DNA from: an uncultured Nitrospiraceae bacterium
GTDB lineage: Bacteria; Nitrospirota; Thermodesulfovibrionia; Thermodesulfovibrionales; UBA6898
Assembly: GCA_963811165.1 (NCBI GenBank)
Contig: CAWEQH010000001.1
Coordinates: 544,001-608,000, forward strand
Direction of reading: 5' to 3'
DNA length: 64,000 nucleotides
The position numbers and the translations under genes were made by a program. Below, in pieces: positions 6,885 to 64,000 of this stretch (the stretch's first letter is position 1; every line of letters begins with the position of its first letter). Below the pieces are notes generated by a model. That model worked only from the letters and a program-made list of their open reading frames with translations. It was not told the origin of the DNA and searched no databases.

Positions 6885-7297
6885 GCCGAAGCAGAACAGA
6901 TGGTCGCCCGCCGGAAGGCGGGAGGAAAGTCCGAGCTCCAAAGGGCAAGGCGCTCTGTAACGCAGAGTCCCGGTGACGGGAAGGAAAGTGCCACAGAAAG
7001 GGAAACCGCCCTGTATGTCAGGGTAAGGGTGAAAAGGTGCCCGCCTCGGCGGGTCTGCCGGAATTGGGCAGAAGGTAAGAGCTCACCAGTGCCTCGGGTG
7101 ACCGGGACAGCTAGGAAAACCCCGCCTGGAGCAAGGTCAAATAGGTTCCGCTTTGAGAGGGGCCCCTTCAAATCCCTTACGTTTCAGGGTGGCGGAACGG
7201 GTAAGGCCGCTAGACCCCGGCAATATGTGCGGGGCTAAGATGAATGACCATGACCCGGTCAACGGGAGACAGAACTCGGCTTATGGGCTGCTTCGGC
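6885..7297 (+). ncRNA. rnpB: RNase P RNA, bacterial type A
   Basis: GAGGAAAGTCCGAGCTC, GGAAAGTGCCACAGAAA, GGAGCAAGG, ACAGAACTCGGCTTAT; terminal P1 GCCGAAGCAG/CTGCTTCGGC. Confidence 0.97.
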
Positions 7298-7336
7298 AAT
7301 ATAACAGGACCCTTGAAGGGTCTTTGAGAAGGCGGT

Positions 7337-34855: not shown

Positions 34856-35941
34856 TCACGACGTTACGACATGCAATGTTTTTTCAAGGTACGCTTCGCC
34901 CCACCTCAGATCCGGTTCCAGATAGTTGGTCTCGGCCCACTCGTTCCAAGACTTGATGAAGACAACCCTCCGGTCATGGCTGCGGGCAGCTACAAGGCCA
35001 ACAGCTTCACGAAGGTGTTTGGCGTAGAGCTCGGGTCTAGAGCCTGCAAGGACAAAGCCGTTGACTCCGGAGCGGGGTGTGTTGTCCCAGTTTGGGACCA
35101 CGCAAGGGTAGAACTCCGGCCGGCGCGTCTTTTCCGGAAAGGCGTTCCTGACGAAGGTTTCATAGGAGTAGATCTGTGGCAACTCCGGTTTATCGTTGGG
35201 GAAAGTCCGGGCAATCTTCTCGTTGAGGGACTTGATCCCCTGGTATGCAAGCATTGCCACTGGAGGATTCGTTGTGCAGGCGTCATAGCTCTCCTCAGGT
35301 ATCTTCCACGGATAATCCGTAATGGCGATGAAATAGAATCCCGGCACGCCCTCTTTCTCCGCCAATTTCCGCCAGGTATTTATGAAGAGTCCCGGCTCCC
35401 AGAGATCAAAAGGGCGATAGATGCAGAAGATATTTCTGTCGTCTATCTTCATGTAACGGGGGTCGCGGAAGGCATCAATCATGGCATAAAAGTGAGAGAT
35501 GAAATCCTCTACGCCTGGATACGTCTGTTCGATCAGGATACGATCCGGGCAACCGTGCCAGATGCCCGACCATGTATGGTTGGCCCAGGCAAGACAAAAG
35601 GGAAAGTCAGGGTTTCCTGACTTCAGCACTTCATTGAAGGGCCTCTCCAACAGTCTTTTGCCGCCGAACCAGTAATGCCAATAGCAGAACCCCTCTATCC
35701 CGTATCGATGGGCCAGCTCCGCCTGGGCAATCCGGGACTCAGGCACCCGTAAGTCGTAGAAGCTCAGGTCTGCCGGGAAATTCGGCTGCTCGTGTCCGGC
35801 GAACAGAGGCTTTGCCCTGGCGACGTTCGTCCATTCGGTGAATCCTTCGCCCCACCATTCATCGTTTTCCGGGATCGGATGGAACTGGGGAAGATAGAAT
35901 GCGATCAGACGGGCTTTGAGATCAGAATTCTGTCGTATCAT
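34856..35941 (-). CDS. WbsX / GH99-like glycosyltransferase family protein
   Basis: LIAFYLPQFHPIPENDEWWG, PNWDNTPR, KSWNEWAE. Confidence 0.9.
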   Translation of the reverse strand: MIRQNSDLKARLIAFYLPQFHPIPENDEWWGEGFTEWTNVARAKPLFAGHEQPNFPADLSFYDLRVPESRIAQAELAHRYGIEGFCYWHYWFGGKRLLERPFNEVLKSGNPDFPFCLAWANHTWSGIWHGCPDRILIEQTYPGVEDFISHFYAMIDAFRDPRYMKIDDRNIFCIYRPFDLWEPGLFINTWRKLAEKEGVPGFYFIAITDYPWKIPEESYDACTTNPPVAMLAYQGIKSLNEKIARTFPNDKPELPQIYSYETFVRNAFPEKTRRPEFYPCVVPNWDNTPRSGVNGFVLAGSRPELYAKHLREAVGLVAARSHDRRVVFIKSWNEWAETNYLEPDLRWGEAYLEKTLHVVTS

Positions 35942-54068: not shown

Positions 54069-55172
54069 TTGAAGATAGGTATTAATGCAACATTCCTGAG
54101 CGAAAAACCTACCGGATTAGGGGTTTTTACACAAGAGATATCCCGCCATATCTCTGCGCTTAACAGGGACTTCGTCGTATTTTCACCGGTCGCCCTGGAA
54201 GGAGTTTCGGAAGTTTTTATCCATAAAGTCCCGCCTTCGGTCAGGGGTTCTCTGAGGTTTCGCGATAACCTGCTGCGGTTTGTGTATCTAAACGGTCTCT
54301 TCCCCATGCTTTGCCGGAAGAGCAAAGTTGATGTCCTGTTTTGCCCGATGATAGAGTTTCCCTTTGTACCACTTGTCCCGCTTGTTGTGCAAGTCCATGA
54401 CCTGCACCCGATACAATTTGCCGCGCAGTTCAAGCGCGCTGCAGTTCACTTCAGATTATCACTGAAAAGGTTGGAGAAAGTCGCCGGAAGGGTGACCGTC
54501 TCGTCCGAGTTTGTAAAAAAAGTTCTCCTTTCGGCAACAAACTTGGGAGAAGACATGATCGACGTAGTCCCGCTTGCCTATAACCGGGAGAGGTTTTATC
54601 CAAGAGGCCAGGAGGGAAGAGCCGGGTTCCTGGCAAAATATTCCCTCAATGGCCCTTACATCCTTGCGGTGGGAAATCTCTTTCCTTATAAAAATATTGG
54701 CAGCCTTGTTGAGGCATTTCTCAGGATTAAAGGTAAGGTGGCTCATTCATTGGTCGTTGTCGGCAGAAAGGAATTTGCGGCATCGCAATTGGCCGATGAC
54801 GAACGGGTACTGTATACCGATTATGTCCCGGACGAAGACCTCCAGAAATTTCACTCCTATGCTGATCTTCTCATACACCCCTCCCTAAGCGAAGGCTTCG
54901 GACTTACTCCTCTTGAGGCGATGGCCTGCGGTACGCCGGTCATATGCTCTGACCGCGCATCATTACCGGAAGTAGTCGGAGACGCGGGGCTGCTTTTTGA
55001 TCCGGACGACGAGACCGCCTTGGGGGAATTGATACTGAGGGTGCTCGGCAATGAAGGACTGAGAAGAGAACTCTCGGCAAAAGGGCTGAAAAGGGCTCAA
55101 CTATTTTCCTGGGAGAAGACCGCCTCGGGCATCCTTGATTCGTGCAGGAAGGCGCTAAAAGAGAACCGGTGA
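54069..55172 (+). CDS. GT4 glycosyltransferase
   Basis: [35 protein letters not shown]. Confidence 0.92.
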
Positions 55173-56280
55173 AGATACTCCATCTGCTGTACGAAAGCAA
55201 GGGCGATTATTTCGGGATCGGCGGTGTCGGAACGCGCGCATACGAGATTTACGGCCGCCTCAAAGGCAGGCACGAAATTACGCTTTTGTGCAAAAAATAT
55301 CCTGGCGCACGCGACAAAGAGATAGAAGGATTGGCACATATCTTTGCGGGTACCGAAAGCAGGAGTCTCACCAGGACGCTGTTGTCCTACGCATACAGGG
55401 CGGCCCGCTTTGTCTCGGAGAAGGGGAAAGATATGACCTCATAATTGAGGAATTCTCCCCGGCCGTGCCGACCTTTCTCCATGCCGTTACGAAAAGGCCG
55501 GTTGTGCTGCAGGTCCAGGGATATACGGGGTCCCTTTATTTCAGGAAGTACAACCCCCTCTATTCTTCGGTCCTTTTTCTTTTGGAGCACCTGCGGCCGT
55601 TGCTCTATTGCAACTTTATATTTATAAATGATGAGACCGCGGGCAGGCTCTTTCTCGATAACAAAAAGCATAAGACGGTCATCCCAAACGGCGTGGCCCC
55701 CGAACTCTTCGGCCTCCCGTTTCGGCGAGGGGATTACATACTTTACCTGGGCCGTATACATGTACGGCAAGGGGCTCGACCTGCTTTTGGCTGCGTATAC
55801 TGAATTTTGCAGTTCTTTCCGTAACATCAAACTGGTCGTGGCCGGGGACGGCAGGGACATGGACAGGTTAAGGTCAGCGGTGATGGCACTGCCGAGGGCG
55901 TAAGGGGGAACATCGAACTTCCCGGTTGGGTCTCGGGAGTAAAGAAAAGCGAAATTATCGGTGATGCCTCTTTTGTCGTCTTTCCTTCCAGGCATGAGGT
56001 CCAGCCCATATCGGTCCTTGAGGCTATGGCCTGCGGGAAGTCTGTTTTAGTGAGCGATATCCCCGCATGCTCTTTTGTCACGCAAAACGGGGCAGGGGTC
56101 TCCTTCAAGTCAGGGGACCCGGCCTCGCTGGCCCTCTCTATGAAAGATCTCGCCGAAAGCTCCGCACGTGAAGAAATGGGGATCAAGGGAAGGGAATGGG
56201 TCAAAAATTTCACATGGGACAGGATCGCAGCTCAATATGAGAAGTTCCTTGTCGAGACAGTCGAATCTTACTCGGAGTAA
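55169..56280 (+). CDS. GT4 glycosyltransferase (frameshifted)
   Basis: Pieces: KILHLLYES...GGVG, IPNGV, YLGRI..KGLDLLL, FPSRHE...LEAMACGK, FTWDRIA. Confidence 0.85.
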
Positions 56281-57472
56281 ATGATCGCCTTGATCTTCTC
56301 CTTGTCTTTTATCTTGGCAGCCAGTTTTGCCGATTTTCTTGTCTGCGGAATTTCCGATCAGCACCCGGTAGAGCATCCCTTTGTCTTTCCCGGAGCCCTT
56401 GACCACAAAGGCATCGTATCCTTTCCCCTTAAATTGTTTCGTCAGCGCGGCGGCATTGTCTCACTCTTAAACACACCCAGTTGAACGGAATAGTCTTTTT
56501 CCCTGAGGTTTTCGCTTTACCCGAAGGAGTGGGCGCTGTGGGCAAGGCGCGGCGGTCCTTTTTTCGCAGGCAATATGGGGGCCGGTGAGGGCGATGCAGG
56601 GGCTGTTTTCCCGGCAGACGGGCAAGCCGCAGGGGCCGTCTTATTTTCAGCGCCGGTCTGTTGTTTTTGCTGTTCATTTTCCGGAGCAGGCGACGGAGTC
56701 GAAGAATGAGCGGGCGCCGCATTCGGTCTTCGGCTTCATGCGGTAGTCGATGGGTTTATGGGGACGGCCTTTTTAGTCCCCAAATCCCGGTATCAGCCCG
56801 CTGTAAAAGAGGGCGCCTGCACGATAACGACAATTACCATGGCCGCTCCGGCGATGACCGCAGGGAGGCTCGCTTCTTTTTTCTGCGCCTCAGCGCTTCT
56901 TTGGAAATTAGGCATCCGCAGGCTCCGGAATTTTTTTTCCCCGTAAACCATTTCTTTATCAGGCTCTTCGTCAAGCTCCGGTATACCCGACAACTGAAAA
57001 ATCGGAGCCTCATGTCCGGGGCCTGTTTTACGGCAGGACCTCAATCGGGAAGGCAGTCTCTTCGCTTTCAGGGGCACGTTCCTTTTTCCTTGACGTGCAG
57101 TACGATGGGGGGCCTTGAATTGAGGACTTTCGCGGTTTTTTCAAGGAGCTCACCGGCGGTGAAAGGGACGGTAATCACGTCCGGCGACACGAAGGCAGAA
57201 GAGAGTCAATTCCATTTTGCTCGCGGGGATATCAATAAGACGAGGGGGACCTTTTGCAGTGACTCGAACCCGCGGATCGTCCTGCACATATCAAGCCCTG
57301 TTTCATCGGGGTTTATGAATATGAGGGAAGGGCTGACTTTCTGCGCCATTTCCGTGCCGACGTCGCCGCCGGGGACCGCAAAAAACCAGATTCCCTTCCG
57401 ATCGAGGGTAGAAGCGATGAGCTGCTCCGTTTCGCTGTCGGAGTCAATTACAAGGATCGTTTTGCTTGCCAT
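56268..57472 (-). CDS. receiver-like domain + single TM + SPOR domain protein (frameshifted)
   Basis: MASKTILVIDSD...SPSLIFIN (receiver fold); TM LPAVIAGAAMVIVVIV..ALFY; SPOR YSVQLGVFKSE.NAAAL...KGYDAFVV...LYRVLIG. Confidence 0.78.
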
Positions 57473-57511
57473 AGTAAATTCCCTTTCAATGGGTTATCGT
57501 ATCCCGAGACC

Positions 57512-58529
57512 TCAAAGAGGTTCCCAGTACTTCGAAGGCATATGTTGCGCCAGTTCAGCGCACCGTTCATCCTGCAAACAGAGGGTCTTCCACGCAAGAT
57601 ACCCTGCAGGGGCCGTATTCTCTCAGTGCGTCCTGCAAATATTCACGGAGGCCCCGGATCAGGCTGCCGCCGCCTGCAAAGACGATATTGTTTTTATCCT
57701 GACCTGAATTCAGGATCGAACCTCGCGATCATCTCGGTGGTGGTCTCGGTGAGCGCCGGAAGAATGCTTTCGGAGGCCGCTTGATCTCGTGTTTGATATC
57801 GTGCATGACGGGTTTGCCGTCGACCGGTATCCCTCGCGGACCTCTTCGGCCGTGTCCCTTACAAAGCTGTAATTTTTTTTGAACCGACGCACCATGTTCT
57901 TGTTGAACTTCGAGTTGGGATATTTCTCGATCAGATAGCTGAACAGCTGGTCTTCTATGTAATCGCCCGCATTCAGTATGGTCTTCTGGGCTTCCTCTGT
58001 AGGGATCGCCCCGTGCATGATGCAGAAATCGGTCGTACCCGCGCCGATATCGATGACGAGCGAATGTTCAGGAGGTTCATCCCGTAGGCGACCGCAAAGG
58101 GTTCGGTCACACCATCAATGCGTGGACGAATTCCGTCACCGCCTTTCTGATGGCGAGTTGTTCACCTTCAGGGTATCGGCCGAACGCCCACGACCGCGTG
58201 TATCTTTTGTTCCGGTTTGGGGCCTGCGAGTTCGATCAGATGCTTCATGATCTCTTTCACGGCCTCTTCGTTTTTGCCGATCCCTTCCTTTATCACACCA
58301 TGCTCAAGAGCCGGCAGACGTCGAGGGAGAGCCTGTTTTGGAGCGCCTCGGCGCCGAAGAGCACCGGCTTGCCGACGACCTGCATCGAGATAAAGTCCTT
58401 GGGCCAGCCCACGAAACTCTCGATCCATTCCCTCTTGTCGTTGCCGGCCGAGATCGCGGACCTCGATGTCCCGAGGTCGATCCCTACGAACAGGATGTTA
58501 TCTTTTTTCTGCGGATCCGTTTGCCTCAT
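57512..58529 (-). CDS. MamK-like actin-family ATPase (about 340 aa, many frameshifts)
   Basis: Reconstructed motifs FVGIDLGTSRS, SFVGWPKD, LEHGVIKE, HAVVGV, EPFAVAYG, IDIGAGTTDFC, AGDYIED, NIVFAGGGSLIRGL, CVEDPLFAG, MPSKYWEPL. Confidence 0.88.
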
Positions 58530-59556
58530 AGCTCATTTCTCCTTTATTTAGGTAATCCAGTATCCCGGCCTCAAGATAATGGGCGATATTCTCCCTGTGC
58601 CCCGGGGTGTTCAGCATCTGTTCCTCCTCTTTGTTGCTCAGGCATGAGACCTCCGCCAGCACGGCCGGTATGTCCACTCCAAGCAGCACGACGAAAGGCG
58701 CCCTCTTGACCCCGAAGTCGTAGGCGTTTCCGTTGTCTTTCTTGAAGTTCAGAAAAAGCGTTTTTTGTATGGAATATGCAAGGCCCCTGGACTCCTGCGT
58801 CTTCATCCTCTCCCCCAGCTTTTCGATGATCTCCTTGAAATCGCTCAGGCCATACTGGGACCCGGCGTTTTCCTGTTCCGCAAGCCTTTGCGTCTTGGTA
58901 TCGGCAGAGGGACCGAAAAAGTAGGTCTCGATGATATTGATCGGTTTGTGGGGAATATAATTGAGATGAATGGACAGGAAGAGGTCCGCCTTTTTTGATA
59001 CTGCCATATCGACCCTTTTATTGAGGGGCACCGTAACGTCCTGGTCTCGGGTCATCAACACGTTAAACCGGCCGTATTTGTCTAAACGTTCCTTCAGCCT
59101 CCTTGCGATGTCTAAAGTGATGTCCTTCTCAAGAGTGCCCATTACTCCCTTTGTGCCGGAGTCTGCGCCGCCGTGCCCCGCGTCTATCATGATCGTCCTT
59201 ACCCCCAGGCCGAAGGTGCGGCTGACCGACATATCGGGATTGGTGATAAATGCCCGGAAATCGGCCGGATTTGATTTGGGGCCGGGAGTGAGAATTTTTT
59301 GACTTATCTCGCTTGCGGTCAGCTGTTTTTCCGAGAAGAACGAGTTTGAGACGTAGGAGCCGTGGACCAGGATAGCGACCGTTGAGATAAGCAGGGTCAG
59401 GAAAAACTTATTGAGGAGAAAAGGTTTTTGCCGTGATGCAACGCCGTCGCCCTTGCCGATGATCCGCAAATTTTCTTCATAGACGCCCCGCAGCATCTCC
59501 TGCCGGACCTTAAGATCGTTTTTCTTCCGCGAAAAAATAGAGATCATGACGTTCAC
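58498..59556 (-). CDS. membrane-anchored N-acetylmuramoyl-L-alanine amidase (Amidase_3)
   Basis: IMIDAGHGGAD, EKDITL, MTRDQD, FLSIHLN, PAVLAEV; N-proximal TM FFLTLLISTVAILV. Confidence 0.93.
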   Translation of the reverse strand: MNVMISIFSRKKNDLKVRQEMLRGVYEENLRIIGKGDGVASRQKPFLLNKFFLTLLISTVAILVHGSYVSNSFFSEKQLTASEISQKILTPGPKSNPADFRAFITNPDMSVSRTFGLGVRTIMIDAGHGGADSGTKGVMGTLEKDITLDIARRLKERLDKYGRFNVLMTRDQDVTVPLNKRVDMAVSKKADLFLSIHLNYIPHKPINIIETYFFGPSADTKTQRLAEQENAGSQYGLSDFKEIIEKLGERMKTQESRGLAYSIQKTLFLNFKKDNGNAYDFGVKRAPFVVLLGVDIPAVLAEVSCLSNKEEEQMLNTPGHRENIAHYLEAGILDYLNKGEMSYEANGSAEKR

Positions 59557-59559
59557 AAC

Positions 59560-59588
59560 ACTTTACCAATTTGCGGGAAAAAATTCAA
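59560..59588 (-). promoter_or_regulatory. putative sigma70 promoter of the amidase-actin-SPOR unit
   Basis: Minus strand TTGAAT, 17 nt, TG-n-TAAAGT; would favour ATG 59547 as the amidase start. Confidence 0.5.
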
Positions 59589-59849
59589 TGGTGAAGCTCT
59601 CTTATAGCAGGCATGTCACTTGTCCTGTGCCCTCTGCAGCAAAAAATGTATCTTGTTCCAGGCCATGTTGTTAGCGCCTGTGCTTGCCCGCTATGTATAT
59701 GTAATAGTAATGGCGCCGAGGGGAACCCTCTCCCAGGTTTTTCTCGCTCTTGCCTATCCCGAAGCCGAAATTCAAGAAATTCAGTCTCTGTCGTCCATTA
59801 ATTCATATTCTTCAACTATAGAGTATTCATCCTGAATCCGGAAAACAAT

Positions 59850-60899
59850 TTAAATTATGACCTGCATCTTCTTCAGGCCAAAGGCAGTTAGGTTCGTTAA
59901 GAGGAAGGATAGCATATAAATGATAATCACTAGAAAAGAGAATAACAAATAATCTTCTAAGAGATTTAATTGAAGGTATCTAAAAAGAGGTAAAGTCTGA
60001 GTTAATAAAATATGATGAATTAGAAATGCTCCATAAGAATATACACTGAAAAAATTAACAATCTTCTTAAGAAATAAAATATCAAAAAAAGAAGAGACAC
60101 ATGATAAACATATGAAAATGCAAATACCTTCTATAGCCGTCCTATAAAGGATAGGCATATTCGTTTCAACAGCCAAGAAAAAGAATATTCCTGCTATTCC
60201 TATTATGAAAACTTTTGACAATCCATGAGAGGGGTTATAGAAATAAACAAAACTCATGCCAAAGGCAAATTCGACTAACCGAGACAGCGGAAATCTGAGA
60301 ATTTCCATATTCAGACAATAAAATCTTTCCGTCAAGATCATTATGAATACACAAAACAGAAAGGTGATCAATTGATTTGTCAAAAATAGACGCCGCAAAA
60401 AAGGAAAAATCATATACATGATGATGATAAAGCCTAAAAACCATTCTCCCAGCAAATAAAAATTATTTACTCCATACCGCAAAAAACCATCTAGCCCCGC
60501 GATTGTAAGCAAGAAAGTTGCCAAATGTGCTTTTACAGGAACCGCTTGATATTTCAAGAATAATATTGAAAAAGTTATCACATAAGTAACCCAGAAAAGA
60601 GGATAAATGGAAAAAAACCTTTTTTTAAAAAAAGCCTTTGCCTCAAAGGTGTCTTTTGTGCTTACCATTAGTGAAGCTCCCGATAGAATAATGAAGAGTG
60701 ACACTCCTATAAGTCCCCAAAAAGAGTGATCCAAGCTAAACAGCGATTGAGGCCAGAAGACGATATTGTTCGTAATTCCCATTTCCAGGGCATGATAATT
60801 GTAATGAAAAATTATTATCAGTAATATTGAAATCGCTCTTAAAAAGTCAAGGTAGAAAAGTCTTTTCCCCTTCATCGTATGTAGTTTGACATTATCCAC
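59850..60899 (-). CDS. acyltransferase family 3 (O-acetyltransferase)
   Basis: YLDFLRAISI...H, GVSLFIILSG, KKRFFSIYP, SYGAFLIH; polytopic membrane protein; very AT-rich. Confidence 0.9.
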   Translation of the reverse strand: MDNVKLHTMKGKRLFYLDFLRAISILLIIIFHYNYHALEMGITNNIVFWPQSLFSLDHSFWGLIGVSLFIILSGASLMVSTKDTFEAKAFFKKRFFSIYPLFWVTYVITFSILFLKYQAVPVKAHLATFLLTIAGLDGFLRYGVNNFYLLGEWFLGFIIIMYMIFPFLRRLFLTNQLITFLFCVFIMILTERFYCLNMEILRFPLSRLVEFAFGMSFVYFYNPSHGLSKVFIIGIAGIFFFLAVETNMPILYRTAIEGICIFICLSCVSSFFDILFLKKIVNFFSVYSYGAFLIHHILLTQTLPLFRYLQLNLLEDYLLFSFLVIIIYMLSFLLTNLTAFGLKKMQVII

Positions 60900-61911
60900 G
60901 AAGAAACTTTTTGATCTTCATTAAGAAGAAGTCCTTTTCCCAAACAGAGGTCATAATACTGTAAAGGTATTTATTATCGACTTTCACGGTTTTCATAATT
61001 TGTTTTCTCTTGCTCATCATGCTTGGAAAAAAAATGACAACGTCTCTTTTTGCCTTAAGATAAACCCTCAGTTTCCTATGCTTTACTGCAAAATAGATAA
61101 ACTCAGATATGATGCCAAGGATAAATTCCGGGAAACACCTCAAGAAAAGAACAAATGAGATATTCTTGATTCTCACAAATTCGCTGTTCCTGAGGGTATA
61201 ATAAACAGCCATATCGCTCATATGACCTATCGATGAGCGAACCTTATGATAGACTACCGCGGTAGGTACGTAGAGGACCTGCCAACCTGCAAGCTGAGCC
61301 CTGAAGTTAAGATCGGTATCTTCGTGGATCAGGAAAAAATCTTTGTCAAGAAAACCGATCTCATCGAGCATTTTCCGCCTGTAAAGTGCAGCACCTGCAC
61401 AAGCACCGAAGACATATTCCTGGCTGTTATAGTTGAGGCTGGCTTCCCCTTCTCCTCGTTTAAAGCCCTTCAGCGATGTTGAGTATCCGTCACCCGCACT
61501 ATCTATGTTATCTGTTCCAAAAACAATCATTTTAGAAGCGCAGATGCCCGTATCGGGACGCGCTTCCATCACTCTAACAAGATTATCGATCCATTCCCTG
61601 CCGGGTTCGGTGTCATTATTAAGGAGGGCTATATATTCGGCTTCCGTATACGCTAACCCCGCCAGATTACCACCAGCAAAGCCTGAGTTACCGTTTAAGG
61701 GGATTAATTTTACAGGATTTAAAGTGCTCATTTCTAAAAACTTTCGGATTTCATTTATTGAATTATCTGACGAGCCATTTTCAACAATGATAACCTCAAA
61801 GTCCTTAAAGCTCTGCTCCTCAATAGCTCTCAGACAATCTATCGTCAGGTCGCTCCCATTGTAATTGACAATAATTATGCTTACTTTGGGCATCTGCCTT
61901 GGTTGATGCAT
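60892..61911 (-). CDS. GT2 glycosyltransferase
   Basis: VSIIIVNYN, ENGSSD, LLNND, HEDTDL. Confidence 0.92.
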   Translation of the reverse strand: MHQPRQMPKVSIIIVNYNGSDLTIDCLRAIEEQSFKDFEVIIVENGSSDNSINEIRKFLEMSTLNPVKLIPLNGNSGFAGGNLAGLAYTEAEYIALLNNDTEPGREWIDNLVRVMEARPDTGICASKMIVFGTDNIDSAGDGYSTSLKGFKRGEGEASLNYNSQEYVFGACAGAALYRRKMLDEIGFLDKDFFLIHEDTDLNFRAQLAGWQVLYVPTAVVYHKVRSSIGHMSDMAVYYTLRNSEFVRIKNISFVLFLRCFPEFILGIISEFIYFAVKHRKLRVYLKAKRDVVIFFPSMMSKRKQIMKTVKVDNKYLYSIMTSVWEKDFFLMKIKKFLRG

Positions 61912-61961
61912 GTCTGAATAATGAAGATAGGGAGCCCGATCTCATTCATACGGGTTTGCAC

Positions 61962-64000
61962 TTAATACGAGGAAATTAAATATGAAACGTCATCGCTTTC
62001 GCTCTTAATGAATACCTTAATGATATTAAAGCCAGTATCTTTAGAAATTACTTCCTTTAAAACTGATCCCCCAACTTTAAACTCCCATCCCGAATTCAGA
62101 CAATCAGCCCTATCAAAATGCTTTTCCACATCCGGACGCGGCATCCCAAGCGTTGCCTTTCCCACAAGTTCAGCATTGGCATAAATGAAGATCTCCTTTA
62201 CGGGGTCATTGATTCCTTTGCCTATAGCCCACCCGAAAATGGAGAGACCGCCATCCTGTGTCATCCAAACAGAATCAATGTTTCCCATAGGGTAATGGGT
62301 AGGCATCAAATTGTTCATCTGCGGAATATTCTTTTTTGTAACCACATAAATATCCTGAAATCCGCGTAATTCTTTCTCCAGAAAATAAATATTGGCAATG
62401 CCTATTTTCTTGCCCAATCCCTCCACCCAATCTCGTTTTACAAAGGTAGATCCATATTCCTTTGAAGACAATGACCTGCTTTCGCTCCAATTAAAAAAGG
62501 TGAACCCTGACGGATCGATCTGAAGTCCTTCAGGGCACAACGATTCTCCATGCGTTGAAAAGATAAGGATTCCGTCATCGTCCAAAACGTTATAGAGAGT
62601 CGATAGCCACTCTTCAAAACGGTTTGCGGGAAGATGAGAAAATAGAGATCCTACATAAATTATCTCAAAGTTTCCGGGAAATACCAGGCGTGAAGGTTCT
62701 GTTTCAGAGTAAAACCCATTTACCATAAAATATTTCTTTTGAAAATCTACCGCGTCCTTGTAGATATCGCTTACCCATACTTTGGTGGACTCGATCTCTT
62801 GAATCAAGAACCTCGTAACCCTTCCGTAGCCGCATGCAAAGTCCAAAAAGGTTCTTACTTCTCGAAACGACTTTCCGCTAAACCGTATAATATTTTCAAT
62901 GCTCTTAAAACATTCTCTGCCTATTATGAAATAGAGATATTTTGCCGTATCCTTCTGCTCGGTGCTATTTCTCGAAGTGATATACATCTCATCTTCCGGA
63001 CTTATTACATCAACAAAAGTATTGGGGTTCTTCGCTGCCGTTTCGATGTAGGCATTCGCTAATTTTTCCTCTCTGTCAGTGAACAAATGTTGATTGATGA
63101 CATGCCTGTCATTAGATCCTTTTGTCTTCTCCATACACTGTCTAATAAATCCTTTTATCTTTTCCATGCATTGTTTGTTAAAAGTCTCTTCCCAGCTCTG
63201 GCTCCAATGAACGTTGGCTCCGCTTACACGGCTGTCATAATTTTCAATATTCTTTATTGCCCTCACGAGTCCATTTTCTATTCCTTCTGTTGTGGGTTCA
63301 GCCGGGATAATATTTGTCGAAGATTTCCCTAAGACGTTCTGCTGTTTTATTAGCAAAGGTATTTGTTATAACAAGCATCCCCGCTGCAGCCATTTCTAAA
63401 GGTACAATGCTTGGGTGTGGTGAAAGCATCAAACTAAGGCCAATATCAAACCCCGGCAGCACCTCTTTATATTCGTTCAGACTCAGCTTCGGCAACAGTT
63501 TCATAGATACATTGTCATGAAGGATTATCTTCTTGTTCTCTCCCTCTACACTGCCGATTCCATAGAACTCCCAGTTATCAACATCAAAATAACCACTTCC
63601 GATTACATTGGACAATGCGATCATTCCAAGCTCAAACATGTTTCGTGATGCATGTTCCTCAGGGCGTGCATAAAACAATAATTTCTTTTTTGCCCTACTC
63701 GCCATCTTGGTCTTGTCTAATTGAAATTTCAGAATCGCGTTCTCAATAGCAACAGACGATTCCTCACCGATTTGATGCCCGTCTCTAAATACTCCTAATC
63801 GATTCTGACTGAAATATTCTCTCAGTATTTCCGTAGAAAACACCGCGTAATGAGGAAGATTATAGCTTTCCATCGCCAAAGCCGCAAATGATCCCATCGG
63901 GTAAAATATAGGTTCGAATTCCTGGCTGAGATATAGAAAGTTATGAGAATTGAGGTATTTTATAGCGTAATTTGCGATATGAGCCGTCCACCAGCTGGTC
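61962..64000 (-). CDS. WsaF-like glycosyltransferase fused to a class I methyltransferase (5' end off window; frameshift near 63322)
   Basis: TSWWTAH, QEFEPIFYP, FYARP...RNMFELG, SPHPSIVPLEMAAAG; then LDFACGYGR, GSLFSHL; removing one T joins the two ORFs. Confidence 0.78.

Follow-up and report, generated by a model that had tools for sequence, protein, structure and literature searches.

The 64,000-nucleotide stretch of DNA analysed here (the window) is part of contig C1 (CAWEQH010000001.1, positions 544,001 to 608,000) of assembly GCA_963811165.1 from an uncultured Nitrospiraceae bacterium, denoted G000, which comprises 3.66 Mb on 10 contigs and is 95.4% complete. On its minus strand lie three co-oriented genes that encode, in the order of reading, a bitopic peptidoglycan amidase of 352 residues (58498..59556), an actin of the MamK family (57512..58529) and a protein with a pseudo-receiver domain, a transmembrane (TM) segment and a SPOR domain (56268..57472). 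Open reading frame (ORF) and frame calls reproduced the arrangement described in an earlier interpretation made from the letters alone (the sequence-only reading): the amidase and actin genes overlap by 32 nt (58498-58529), and a gap of 39 nt separates the actin stop codon (57512-57514) from the start of the SPOR gene (57472). That interpretation had spoken of three genes, and the amidase is indeed intact, but the actin and receiver/TM/SPOR frames are broken in the window. An uninterrupted trio is present on C3, a shorter contig of the same assembly (L024 is a stretch of it), where the genes for the amidase (L024:7424-8482, 352 aa, 98% identical to the window copy), the actin (L024:6427-7455, 342 aa) and the receiver/TM/SPOR protein (L024:5166-6386, 406 aa) follow one another. 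All protein analyses of the actin and the SPOR protein refer to this intact allele. The conserved core of the unit is the pair of amidase and actin, while the SPOR gene is an add-on found mainly in Nitrospirota.

Family assignment of the actin

Against the NCBIfam profiles the intact actin scores 409.2 bits on the MamK model NF040964 (cut-off 400), compared to 232.6 bits on BeeR (cut-off 530) and 92.1 and 78.2 bits on the MreB models (cut-offs of 293 and 365.75, respectively); the true MreB of the genome reaches 521.6 bits on the MreB model. Residues 7-341 align with residues 7-340 of the solved MamK structures 5jyg, 5ljv and 5ljw at about 2e-88 (2.3e-88 for 5jyg), and the corresponding values for 8r2n and MreB are 7e-44 and 7e-16. 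By profile and structure matches the protein is therefore assigned to the MamK family and not to MreB, as the sequence-only reading had it. The nucleotide-binding motifs are invariant among 55 relatives (Asp-18, Gly-20, Thr-21 and Ser-22; Glu-144, Pro-145 and Phe-146; Asp-162, Gly-164, Gly-166, Thr-167 and Asp-169; Gly-289 and Gly-290), and Gly-291 and Ser-292 are invariant in alignment A1 only. A hydropathy scan found no hydrophobic segment in the actin, so that membrane contact would have to be supplied by a partner.

The setting of the gene is not that of a magnetosome cluster. No mreC, mreD, rodA, pbp2 or other mam/mad/man gene is recognisable in the window, as had been noted before, and a tblastn search of the whole of G000, in which 13 proteins from the genuine magnetosome cluster of a related Nitrospirota genome served as queries, detected no magnetosome genes in this 95.4%-complete assembly: it returned only generic matches to HtrA, cation diffusion facilitator (CDF) and tetratricopeptide repeat proteins at 27-33% identity; MamM, MamQ and three unnamed ORFs of the cluster gave no match. 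For comparison, a closed genome of the same phylum holds a 44-46% identical actin together with MamE-like, MamA, MamB, MamQ, MamM (388.7 bits) and MamP proteins; the MamK of this cluster scores 469.1 bits and is accompanied by a Mad28-like actin.

Could the actin nevertheless belong to a cryptic magnetosome system, as a part or as a remnant of it, or be an elongasome actin of the MreB type? Its score above the NCBI cut-off for MamK would suit the former and its sole placement in Pfam, under MreB_Mbl with 94.3 bits, the latter. However, the genome lacks a specific match to MamM, MamQ, MamP, MamB, MamA or MamE, and the protein is only 44-46% identical to the cluster-borne MamK of the phylum and falls outside that clade (support 99-100). 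As for the elongasome, bona fide MreB, MreC and RodA-type genes lie at C1:84.7-89.8 kb (MreC and the RodA-type gene at 84.7-88.4 kb), 455 kb from the trio, and the MreB model gives the actin 92 bits where 293 are required. We consider both possibilities highly improbable.

Both types of actin occur within one family, since the genomes G308 and G346, which share family f1 with G000, have just the magnetosome-type actin (45% identical) and lack a full-length linked amidase. The magnetosome cluster of G106, a related magnetotactic genome (L056, G106:C1:2416000-2435999), has next to mamK a second, distant actin-like ORF of 415 aa (12168-13415, minus strand), which is Mad28-like and scores 48 bits on the MamK model, and a receiver-domain protein (11291-12181, minus strand). 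Matches to the actin by tblastn occur in 16 phage and 66 plasmid records; even the best of them do not exceed 28% identity and are MreB-like, and thus give no sign of an origin from mobile elements.

The amidase and its cytoplasmic tail

Pfam recognizes the first protein of the unit as Amidase_3 (PF01520; 143.2 bits with a cut-off of 27, 1.1e-41, residues 122-332), and among structures it matches AmiB (3ne8, 4.7e-30), AmiC (4bin, 1.4e-28) and AmiA (8c2o). The AlphaFold2 model has a pLDDT (predicted local distance difference test) of 81.2, and its best Foldseek match is E. coli AmiA with a TMt of 0.83. The chain begins with a basic N-terminal tail of 44 aa (10 Lys/Arg), followed by a TM helix at residues ~45-70 (59347..59424, minus strand; Kyte-Doolittle peak 2.15, model helix 48-66), a linker modelled as disordered (71-92) and the periplasmic Amidase_3 catalytic domain (58561..59193, minus strand). 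By the positive-inside rule, the distribution of charges signals an N-in/C-out orientation. Amidase_3 is the only Pfam domain; there is no AMIN domain, which AmiB and AmiC have for targeting, and the basic tail and TM helix take the place of the signal peptide of an exported soluble enzyme. His-128, Glu-143, His-197 and Glu-302, which we take to be the zinc ligands and the catalytic glutamate, are invariant in 56 amidase sequences. The alignments to 3ne8 and 4bin run across residues ~216-275, whereas those to the Gram-positive enzymes CwlV, LytH and CwlD stop near residue 215. In the model, this insertion (~220-275) consists of helices 220-230, 237-246 and 250-275.

The tail carries a motif with the consensus K..ILR.VYEENL, which is shared from Nitrospirota to Acidobacteria and Rhodothermales and in which Asn-29 is invariant (56/56). 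It is encoded at 59467..59511 on the minus strand (residues 16-30, KVRQEMLRGVYEENL) and is the predicted docking helix; the model shows a helix at residues 7-32 (pLDDT ~81-83) ahead of the TM helix 48-66. A hidden Markov model (HMM) of the motif with 27 columns was searched against the six-frame translations of the whole of G000 and of 80 loci with related actins. Its hits in G000 are confined to the three copies of this amidase (4.6e-10, 1.2e-9 and 9.3e-6); the next match has an E-value of 0.31, so the two other Amidase_3 genes of the genome (on C10) are without the motif. The 55 matches in the 80 loci are all in actin-linked amidases and always towards the N-terminus in the amidase frame, and they include 16 of 16 full-length linked amidases outside the training set of the model. 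Five amidases that it misses are cut by contig ends.

The receiver/TM/SPOR protein

The intact third protein scores 35.5 bits on Response_reg (PF00072, cut-off 30.2) at residues 6-113 and 51 bits on SPOR (PF05036, cut-off 21) at residues 331-403. Between the two domains, which are joined by low-complexity linkers, a TM segment (202-235) is preceded by the sequence SRRRKK, and these signals point to a bitopic protein with a predicted N-in/C-out orientation. In an alignment to YycF (3f6p), the phospho-acceptor aspartate is replaced by asparagine and the lysine of strand β-5 by valine. The acceptor position is Asn, Ser, Lys, Asp, Glu or Arg in the 23 receiver-bearing orthologs among 25 (L092 and L118 being the two without a receiver domain), and because of this variability and the missing Asp and Lys we regard the domain as a pseudo-receiver. 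The SPOR domain would bind denuded glycan.

Conservation and phylogeny of the gene pair

In a sample of the phylum comprising 401 genomes, matches to the actin with E ≤ 1e-40 are found in 38, and these fall into two groups: 24 genomes, G000 included, have an actin of 63-100% identity, and 14 have one of 44-46%. In all loci of the first group (24/24), a co-oriented amidase gene is the direct upstream neighbour of the actin. A gene with the receiver part follows in 19 of the 24, and in 17 of those the SPOR part was also detected, as scored within a flank of 1.5 kb. The trio is thus conserved in other genomes. In the second group, neither the amidase nor the third gene is present in any of the six magnetosome-type loci that were fetched (0/6).

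The presence of the amidase follows the same division. Full-length matches to it (E ≤ 4e-85, from query residue 1-18 to 339-352) occur in exactly the 24 genomes that carry the orthologous actin and in 0 of the 377 others; the remaining matches cover only the catalytic domain and begin no earlier than residue 62, with E ≥ 1e-52. This contrast of 24/24 versus 0/377 is a pattern and not a statistic, because related genomes are not independent.

The 80 loci mentioned above were obtained by scanning all prokaryotes, one genome per species, with the actin alignment. They come from Nitrospirota, Rokubacteria, Desulfobulbaceae, Syntrophobacteraceae, Gammaproteobacteria and Rhodothermales, as well as from Aminicenantes, Thermoanaerobaculia, Holophagales, Planctomycetota, Omnitrophota and Aegiribacteria. 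Of the 80 actins, 61 are immediately preceded by an Amidase_3 gene in the same orientation, in loci that represent at least six phyla; the linked loci belong to the six lineages named first and to Acidobacteriota. The count depends on the method. Pfam on ORF calls recovered the upstream amidase in 45 of 77 loci, a low figure because long antisense ORFs had been picked in high-GC genomes, and a six-frame search with our own HMM, made from these 45 hits, found 60, to which L094 was added by inspection. The overlap of the amidase and actin genes, or their abutment within a few nucleotides, recurs across loci. Two apparently fused “actin” ORFs of 682 aa and 1193 aa (L084 and L094) were rejected as open-frame artefacts, with the amidase in another frame.

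Among the 19 unlinked loci, three have less than 200 nt of upstream sequence (L086, L112 and L124) and one has 378 nt (L090). The other 15 carry Planctomycetota, Phycisphaerae, Omnitrophota, Aegiribacteria or unassigned names and have actins of 44-48% identity. Near the unlinked actin of L125 (Omnitrophota) there is a MamB/M-like CDF gene. In two loci of the Aegiribacteria/Planctomycetota clade (L119:6914-7888 and L123:6901-7866, plus strand), a PAS-domain gene lies upstream and MamE-like proteases are found within a few kb. These three loci may be magnetosome clusters.

A quick maximum-likelihood tree was computed from 102 actins, with a very long MreB outgroup and with no alphaproteobacterial MamK among its rows. 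Cluster-borne MamK and the unlinked Planctomycetota and Omnitrophota actins form one clade (support 99). The linked actins of Acidobacteriota form a clade of 34 rows (support 100), and those of Nitrospirota, Desulfobulbaceae, Gammaproteobacteria and Rhodothermales a clade of 43 rows (support 94).

Downstream of the actin, loci outside the phylum sample were tested by submitting 52 of 67 candidate ORFs to Pfam, 15 ORFs of at most 127 aa being omitted. Besides the SPOR genes discussed below, dihydrofolate reductase, methyltransferase, alpha/beta hydrolase, DNA ligase and PilZ genes were found at this place. In Rhodothermales-type loci the dihydrofolate reductase gene comes directly after the actin (L077:5546-6064 and L082:8990-9532). 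In L049 (733-1485, minus strand) and L129 (9086-10672, plus strand), a receiver-plus-PilZ-like or PilZ gene follows the actin in place of the receiver/SPOR gene, which hints at an input from cyclic di-GMP in some versions of the module.

Origin of the broken reading frames

In the window, the actin can be read only by hopping between frames from 58529 to the stop at 57512-57514, and the SPOR gene likewise from 57472 to 56268-56270. Because insertions and deletions (indels) break these frames, only fragments score in Pfam and NCBIfam: three pieces of the actin match NF040964 at 4.6e-17, 1.8e-6 and 7.2e-24 (27-84 bits each), and the first piece of the SPOR gene reaches 19.3 bits on Response_reg, which is below the cut-off.

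Two shorter contigs of the assembly cover the same region. C2 (40 kb) matches C1:570828-610858, that is, window position 26828 to past the window end, from end to end with 95-97.5% identity, and C3 (47 kb) aligns over its positions 19158-35520 with C1:586607-603595. They resemble haplotigs, duplicates of C1 at 89-97.5% identity with a mosaic of blocks in which C1 equals C3 or C2 equals C3. In a three-way alignment, C1 is nearly identical to C3 at 58250-59500 and C2 equals C3 at 56250-57250, and at 56250-58250 C1 is 8-15% different from either. Such a pattern suggests recombination among several strains around a variable surface-glycan locus.

A comparison of C1 with C3 over 54200-59560 gives 33 indel events, namely 30 deletions of 1-2 nt and three insertions of 1 nt in C1. 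These events, private to C1, lie within 55430..58309 and are distributed over the GT4 glycosyltransferase gene (3), the SPOR gene (18), an intergenic position (1) and the actin gene (11, all deletions of 1 nt), with none in the amidase gene. The substitutions between the two actin alleles fall on codon positions 1, 2 and 3 in the ratio 9/9/53, and this third-position bias indicates that C1 derives from a selected, diverged allele on which small deletions are superimposed. In short-read contigs from four public runs, which belong to two studies of peat and soil metagenomes and are 90-99% identical, the C3-like state is seen at each of the listed places: insertions at 55430, 55757, 55893, 56335, 56339, 56721, 56739 and 56821, and deletions at 56775, 57081 and 57385. 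Because the trio on C3 is intact and contigs from other studies carry the corrected letters, the frame breaks most likely arose as consensus errors when long metagenome reads were assembled across a strain-variable, poorly polished stretch.

Alternatively, the C1 copy could be a real pair of recently decayed pseudogenes in one strain, with the module kept in other strains such as that of C3. The 29 frame-breaking indels across the actin and SPOR genes and the divergence of the stretch from C3 (8-15% substitutions) would agree with this. The indels are, however, all of 1-2 nt, 30 of the 33 are deletions and they occur about once per 90 nt; decay that had accumulated 11 indels in the actin should also have brought many more changes at codon positions 1 and 2. 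In addition, the adjoining amidase has no indel at all, and the GT4 gene and the haplotig C2 are similarly broken, as expected of a poorly polished, strain-mixed region; in C2, stops or frameshifts interrupt the actin and the amidase. We therefore judge decay to be quite improbable, and the indels, which the sequence-only reading had named as a possible mark of dead genes, look like consensus errors next to an intact C3 allele. In a Thermodesulfovibrionales metagenome-assembled genome (MAG), the actin has a stop at codon 204 (L066:7985-9010) with an intact amidase upstream, which represents either an error or a decayed copy.

Proposed mechanism

We propose, with a probability of roughly 0.55, that this operon encodes MamK-family filaments which likely dock the tail helix of the amidase and thereby set where or when stem peptides are stripped from peptidoglycan, with the SPOR protein as a third part in Thermodesulfovibrionia. 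The actin would polymerise beneath the inner membrane, as suggested by its homology to solved MamK (~2e-88) and its intact nucleotide-binding motifs. The conserved N-terminal cytoplasmic helix of the amidase would dock on the filament, which in turn would fix the place, or gate the time, at which stem peptides are removed by the periplasmic domain. The third protein, in Thermodesulfovibrionia, would then bind the denuded glycan made by the amidase through its periplasmic SPOR domain, and its cytoplasmic pseudo-receiver would report back to the filament. The cellular role would presumably be localised splitting of the wall in division, shape or cell separation. We infer a physical coupling of filament and amidase because the tail motif is present only on linked amidases and co-occurrence of the two genes is strict.

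The two genes could also be co-regulated without any contact between their products, the actin positioning another cargo and the amidase being an ordinary cell-separation paralog that shares the operon. Amidase paralogs are common, as the two further Amidase_3 genes of the genome illustrate, and actins of the MamK family occur without an amidase in Planctomycetota (saltatorellin type) and in magnetosome clusters, which means that the filament can serve other cargo. On the other hand, the genes overlap by 32 nt or sit a few nucleotides apart, the amidase co-occurs strictly with the actin (24/24 versus 0/377), and the cytoplasmic helix motif is conserved in several phyla on linked amidases only. 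Such conservation would be difficult to account for in a cytoplasmic tail without a partner, and an operon without contact therefore seems unlikely to us.

Several observations weigh against the docking of the amidase to the filament as part of a co-transcribed unit. The sequence-only reading placed the three genes behind one candidate promoter, which is not supported: the interval 56000-60000 contains two consensus sites where 2.8 are expected by chance, and both (59854-59948) fall in the acyltransferase gene upstream or at its end. The 293-nt intergenic region upstream of the amidase (59557..59849, minus strand), which would be a possible place for a promoter, holds no promoter-like site, and the scan showed no excess of such sites over chance. 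None of the RNA runs is listed as holding the locus, and co-transcription is therefore without support. All 80 related loci come from MAGs, without a phenotype. In the best tree, the 77 linked rows lie on one side of a branch whose support is 0, so that their monophyly is unsupported and the tree speaks neither for nor against an ancestral role of MamK outside magnetosomes, which the sequence-only reading had raised as a possibility. The motif HMM misses one full-length linked amidase (L095). The amidase retains the insertion of the AmiA/B/C type, and no LytM-type activator is encoded in the unit, so that control of the enzyme might come from elsewhere; as known from the AmiB and AmiC structure papers, the inserted helices of AmiA/B/C auto-inhibit the enzyme until a LytM-type activator acts. 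The C1 copy, finally, could have decayed in its strain.

The third gene is a further difficulty. Five of the 24 orthologous loci have no adjoining SPOR gene; what follows there is an opposite-strand HtpX-like gene, a transporter, a small secreted protein, a thiolase or a receiver-PilZ gene. Outside the phylum sample, SPOR was detected downstream in 6 of the 52 ORFs (L058, L062, L063, L079, L092 and L118), with a receiver domain in two of them. Of the self-contained three-part module that had been proposed, the amidase-actin pair thus stands (61/80 loci), while the SPOR gene is a lineage-specific addition, and a three-part feedback loop cannot be the general mechanism, since the gene is absent from 5 of 24 loci and from most other phyla.

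Comparison with known systems

The actin resembles MamK in full-length homology, in passing the family cut-off and in keeping the nucleotide-binding motifs. It differs in lying outside a magnetosome cluster with a peptidoglycan amidase as its fixed neighbour, and the cluster-borne MamK of Nitrospirota has insertions of 9 aa and 5 aa that are missing here and occupies other branches of the tree.

The nearest working precedent for the architecture appears, by analogy, to be LmdC-BacA. LmdC of Hyphomonas neptunium and Rhodospirillum rubrum is a bitopic M23 endopeptidase, encoded in an lmdC-bacA operon with the bactofilin BacA, and its cytoplasmic tail of 38 residues binds the BacA polymer with a dissociation constant of ~15 µM (PMC10945521); biolayer interferometry has been applied to this pair. 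In both systems a cytoskeletal gene is directly preceded by that of a hydrolase, and in both the hydrolase consists of a short conserved N-terminal tail, one TM helix and a periplasmic catalytic domain. Here, however, the filament is an actin and not a bactofilin, and the enzyme an Amidase_3 and not an M23 DD-endopeptidase. The tail, described there as a β-hairpin, is modelled here as a helix whose binding is a prediction.

In the septal loop of E. coli, FtsA has the actin fold, FtsN is bitopic with a C-terminal SPOR domain, and AmiA/B/C create the denuded glycan that SPOR binds. This list of parts matches that of the Nitrospirota trio. The trio differs in being encoded together and apart from the dcw cluster, with FtsA and FtsW on contig C4, in its MamK-type actin, and in a membrane-anchored amidase that lacks an AMIN domain; in addition, FtsN has a short cytoplasmic tail where the SPOR protein has a pseudo-receiver domain. 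One might go further and suppose that the MamK family arose as a wall cytoskeleton of filament and amidase tail, with or without a SPOR reader, or mainly serves as one, that the MamK of magnetosomes was co-opted from it later, and that the Nitrospirota loop is self-reinforcing and parallels FtsA-FtsN-AmiABC while being independent of the divisome genes. We regard this joint proposal as speculative and rather doubtful.

With MreB-RodZ, to which the sequence-only reading had likened it, the proposed system would have in common that a bitopic adaptor connects an actin filament to wall enzymes in the periplasm. Its partner, however, is a hydrolase and not a synthase, no RodZ-like helix-turn-helix domain is present, and MreB, MreC and RodA are encoded elsewhere in the genome.

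A MamK-like actin of a non-magnetotactic bacterium has been described before. A preprint reports that saltatorellin from Saltatorellus is such a protein and forms filaments in E. coli (bioRxiv 10.1101/817700); the word “amidase” is absent from it. A preprint passage citing Lefevre 2013 states that genomes of non-magnetotactic bacteria hold MamK homologues. Saltatorellin is, like the present actin, a member of the MamK family outside magnetotaxis. Its Planctomycetota relatives in our set differ in that 0 of 15 loci have an adjoining amidase and in that they group with cluster-borne MamK. A full-text literature search, whose coverage did not extend to subscription journals, found no paper linking a MamK-type actin with an amidase.

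The bacterial actins with a known job are few, namely MreB, FtsA, the ParM-type actins and MamK, and MamK is treated as a marker of magnetotaxis. The present analysis shows that a large branch of the MamK family belongs to bacteria from at least six phyla that are not magnetotactic, and that gene overlap, strict co-occurrence and a tail motif tie it to a membrane-anchored peptidoglycan amidase. If its filaments steer the cutting of the wall, this would be an undescribed bacterial cytoskeleton, and placement or switching of the amidase by the filament would be a new route by which the cytoplasm directs wall hydrolysis. It would offer a concrete peptide-filament interface open to testing, and it would be a warning against inferring magnetotaxis from mamK alone in metagenomes.

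Gene neighbourhood of the trio

The trio is surrounded in the window by surface-glycan genes, encoding ABC-2 and ABC transporter components, GT4, acyltransferase_3, GT2, a methyltransferase and a WsaF-type protein. The GT4 gene (55142-56280, plus strand) is convergent with the SPOR gene, overlaps its 3' end and is frameshifted as well. On the other side, a low-GC block (0.38-0.41) at 59850-64000 contains the acyltransferase_3, GT2, methyltransferase and WsaF-type glycosyltransferase genes; on C3, this block is exchanged, directly past the amidase start, for other genes that include a different GT2. The trio is thus located at the edge of a swapped glycan cassette, and the different neighbours on C3 fit a strain-variable region. 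Farther away, the window holds a complete rRNA operon (16S, two tRNAs, 23S and 5S) at 19253-24539 and an RNase P RNA of class A at 6888-7298.

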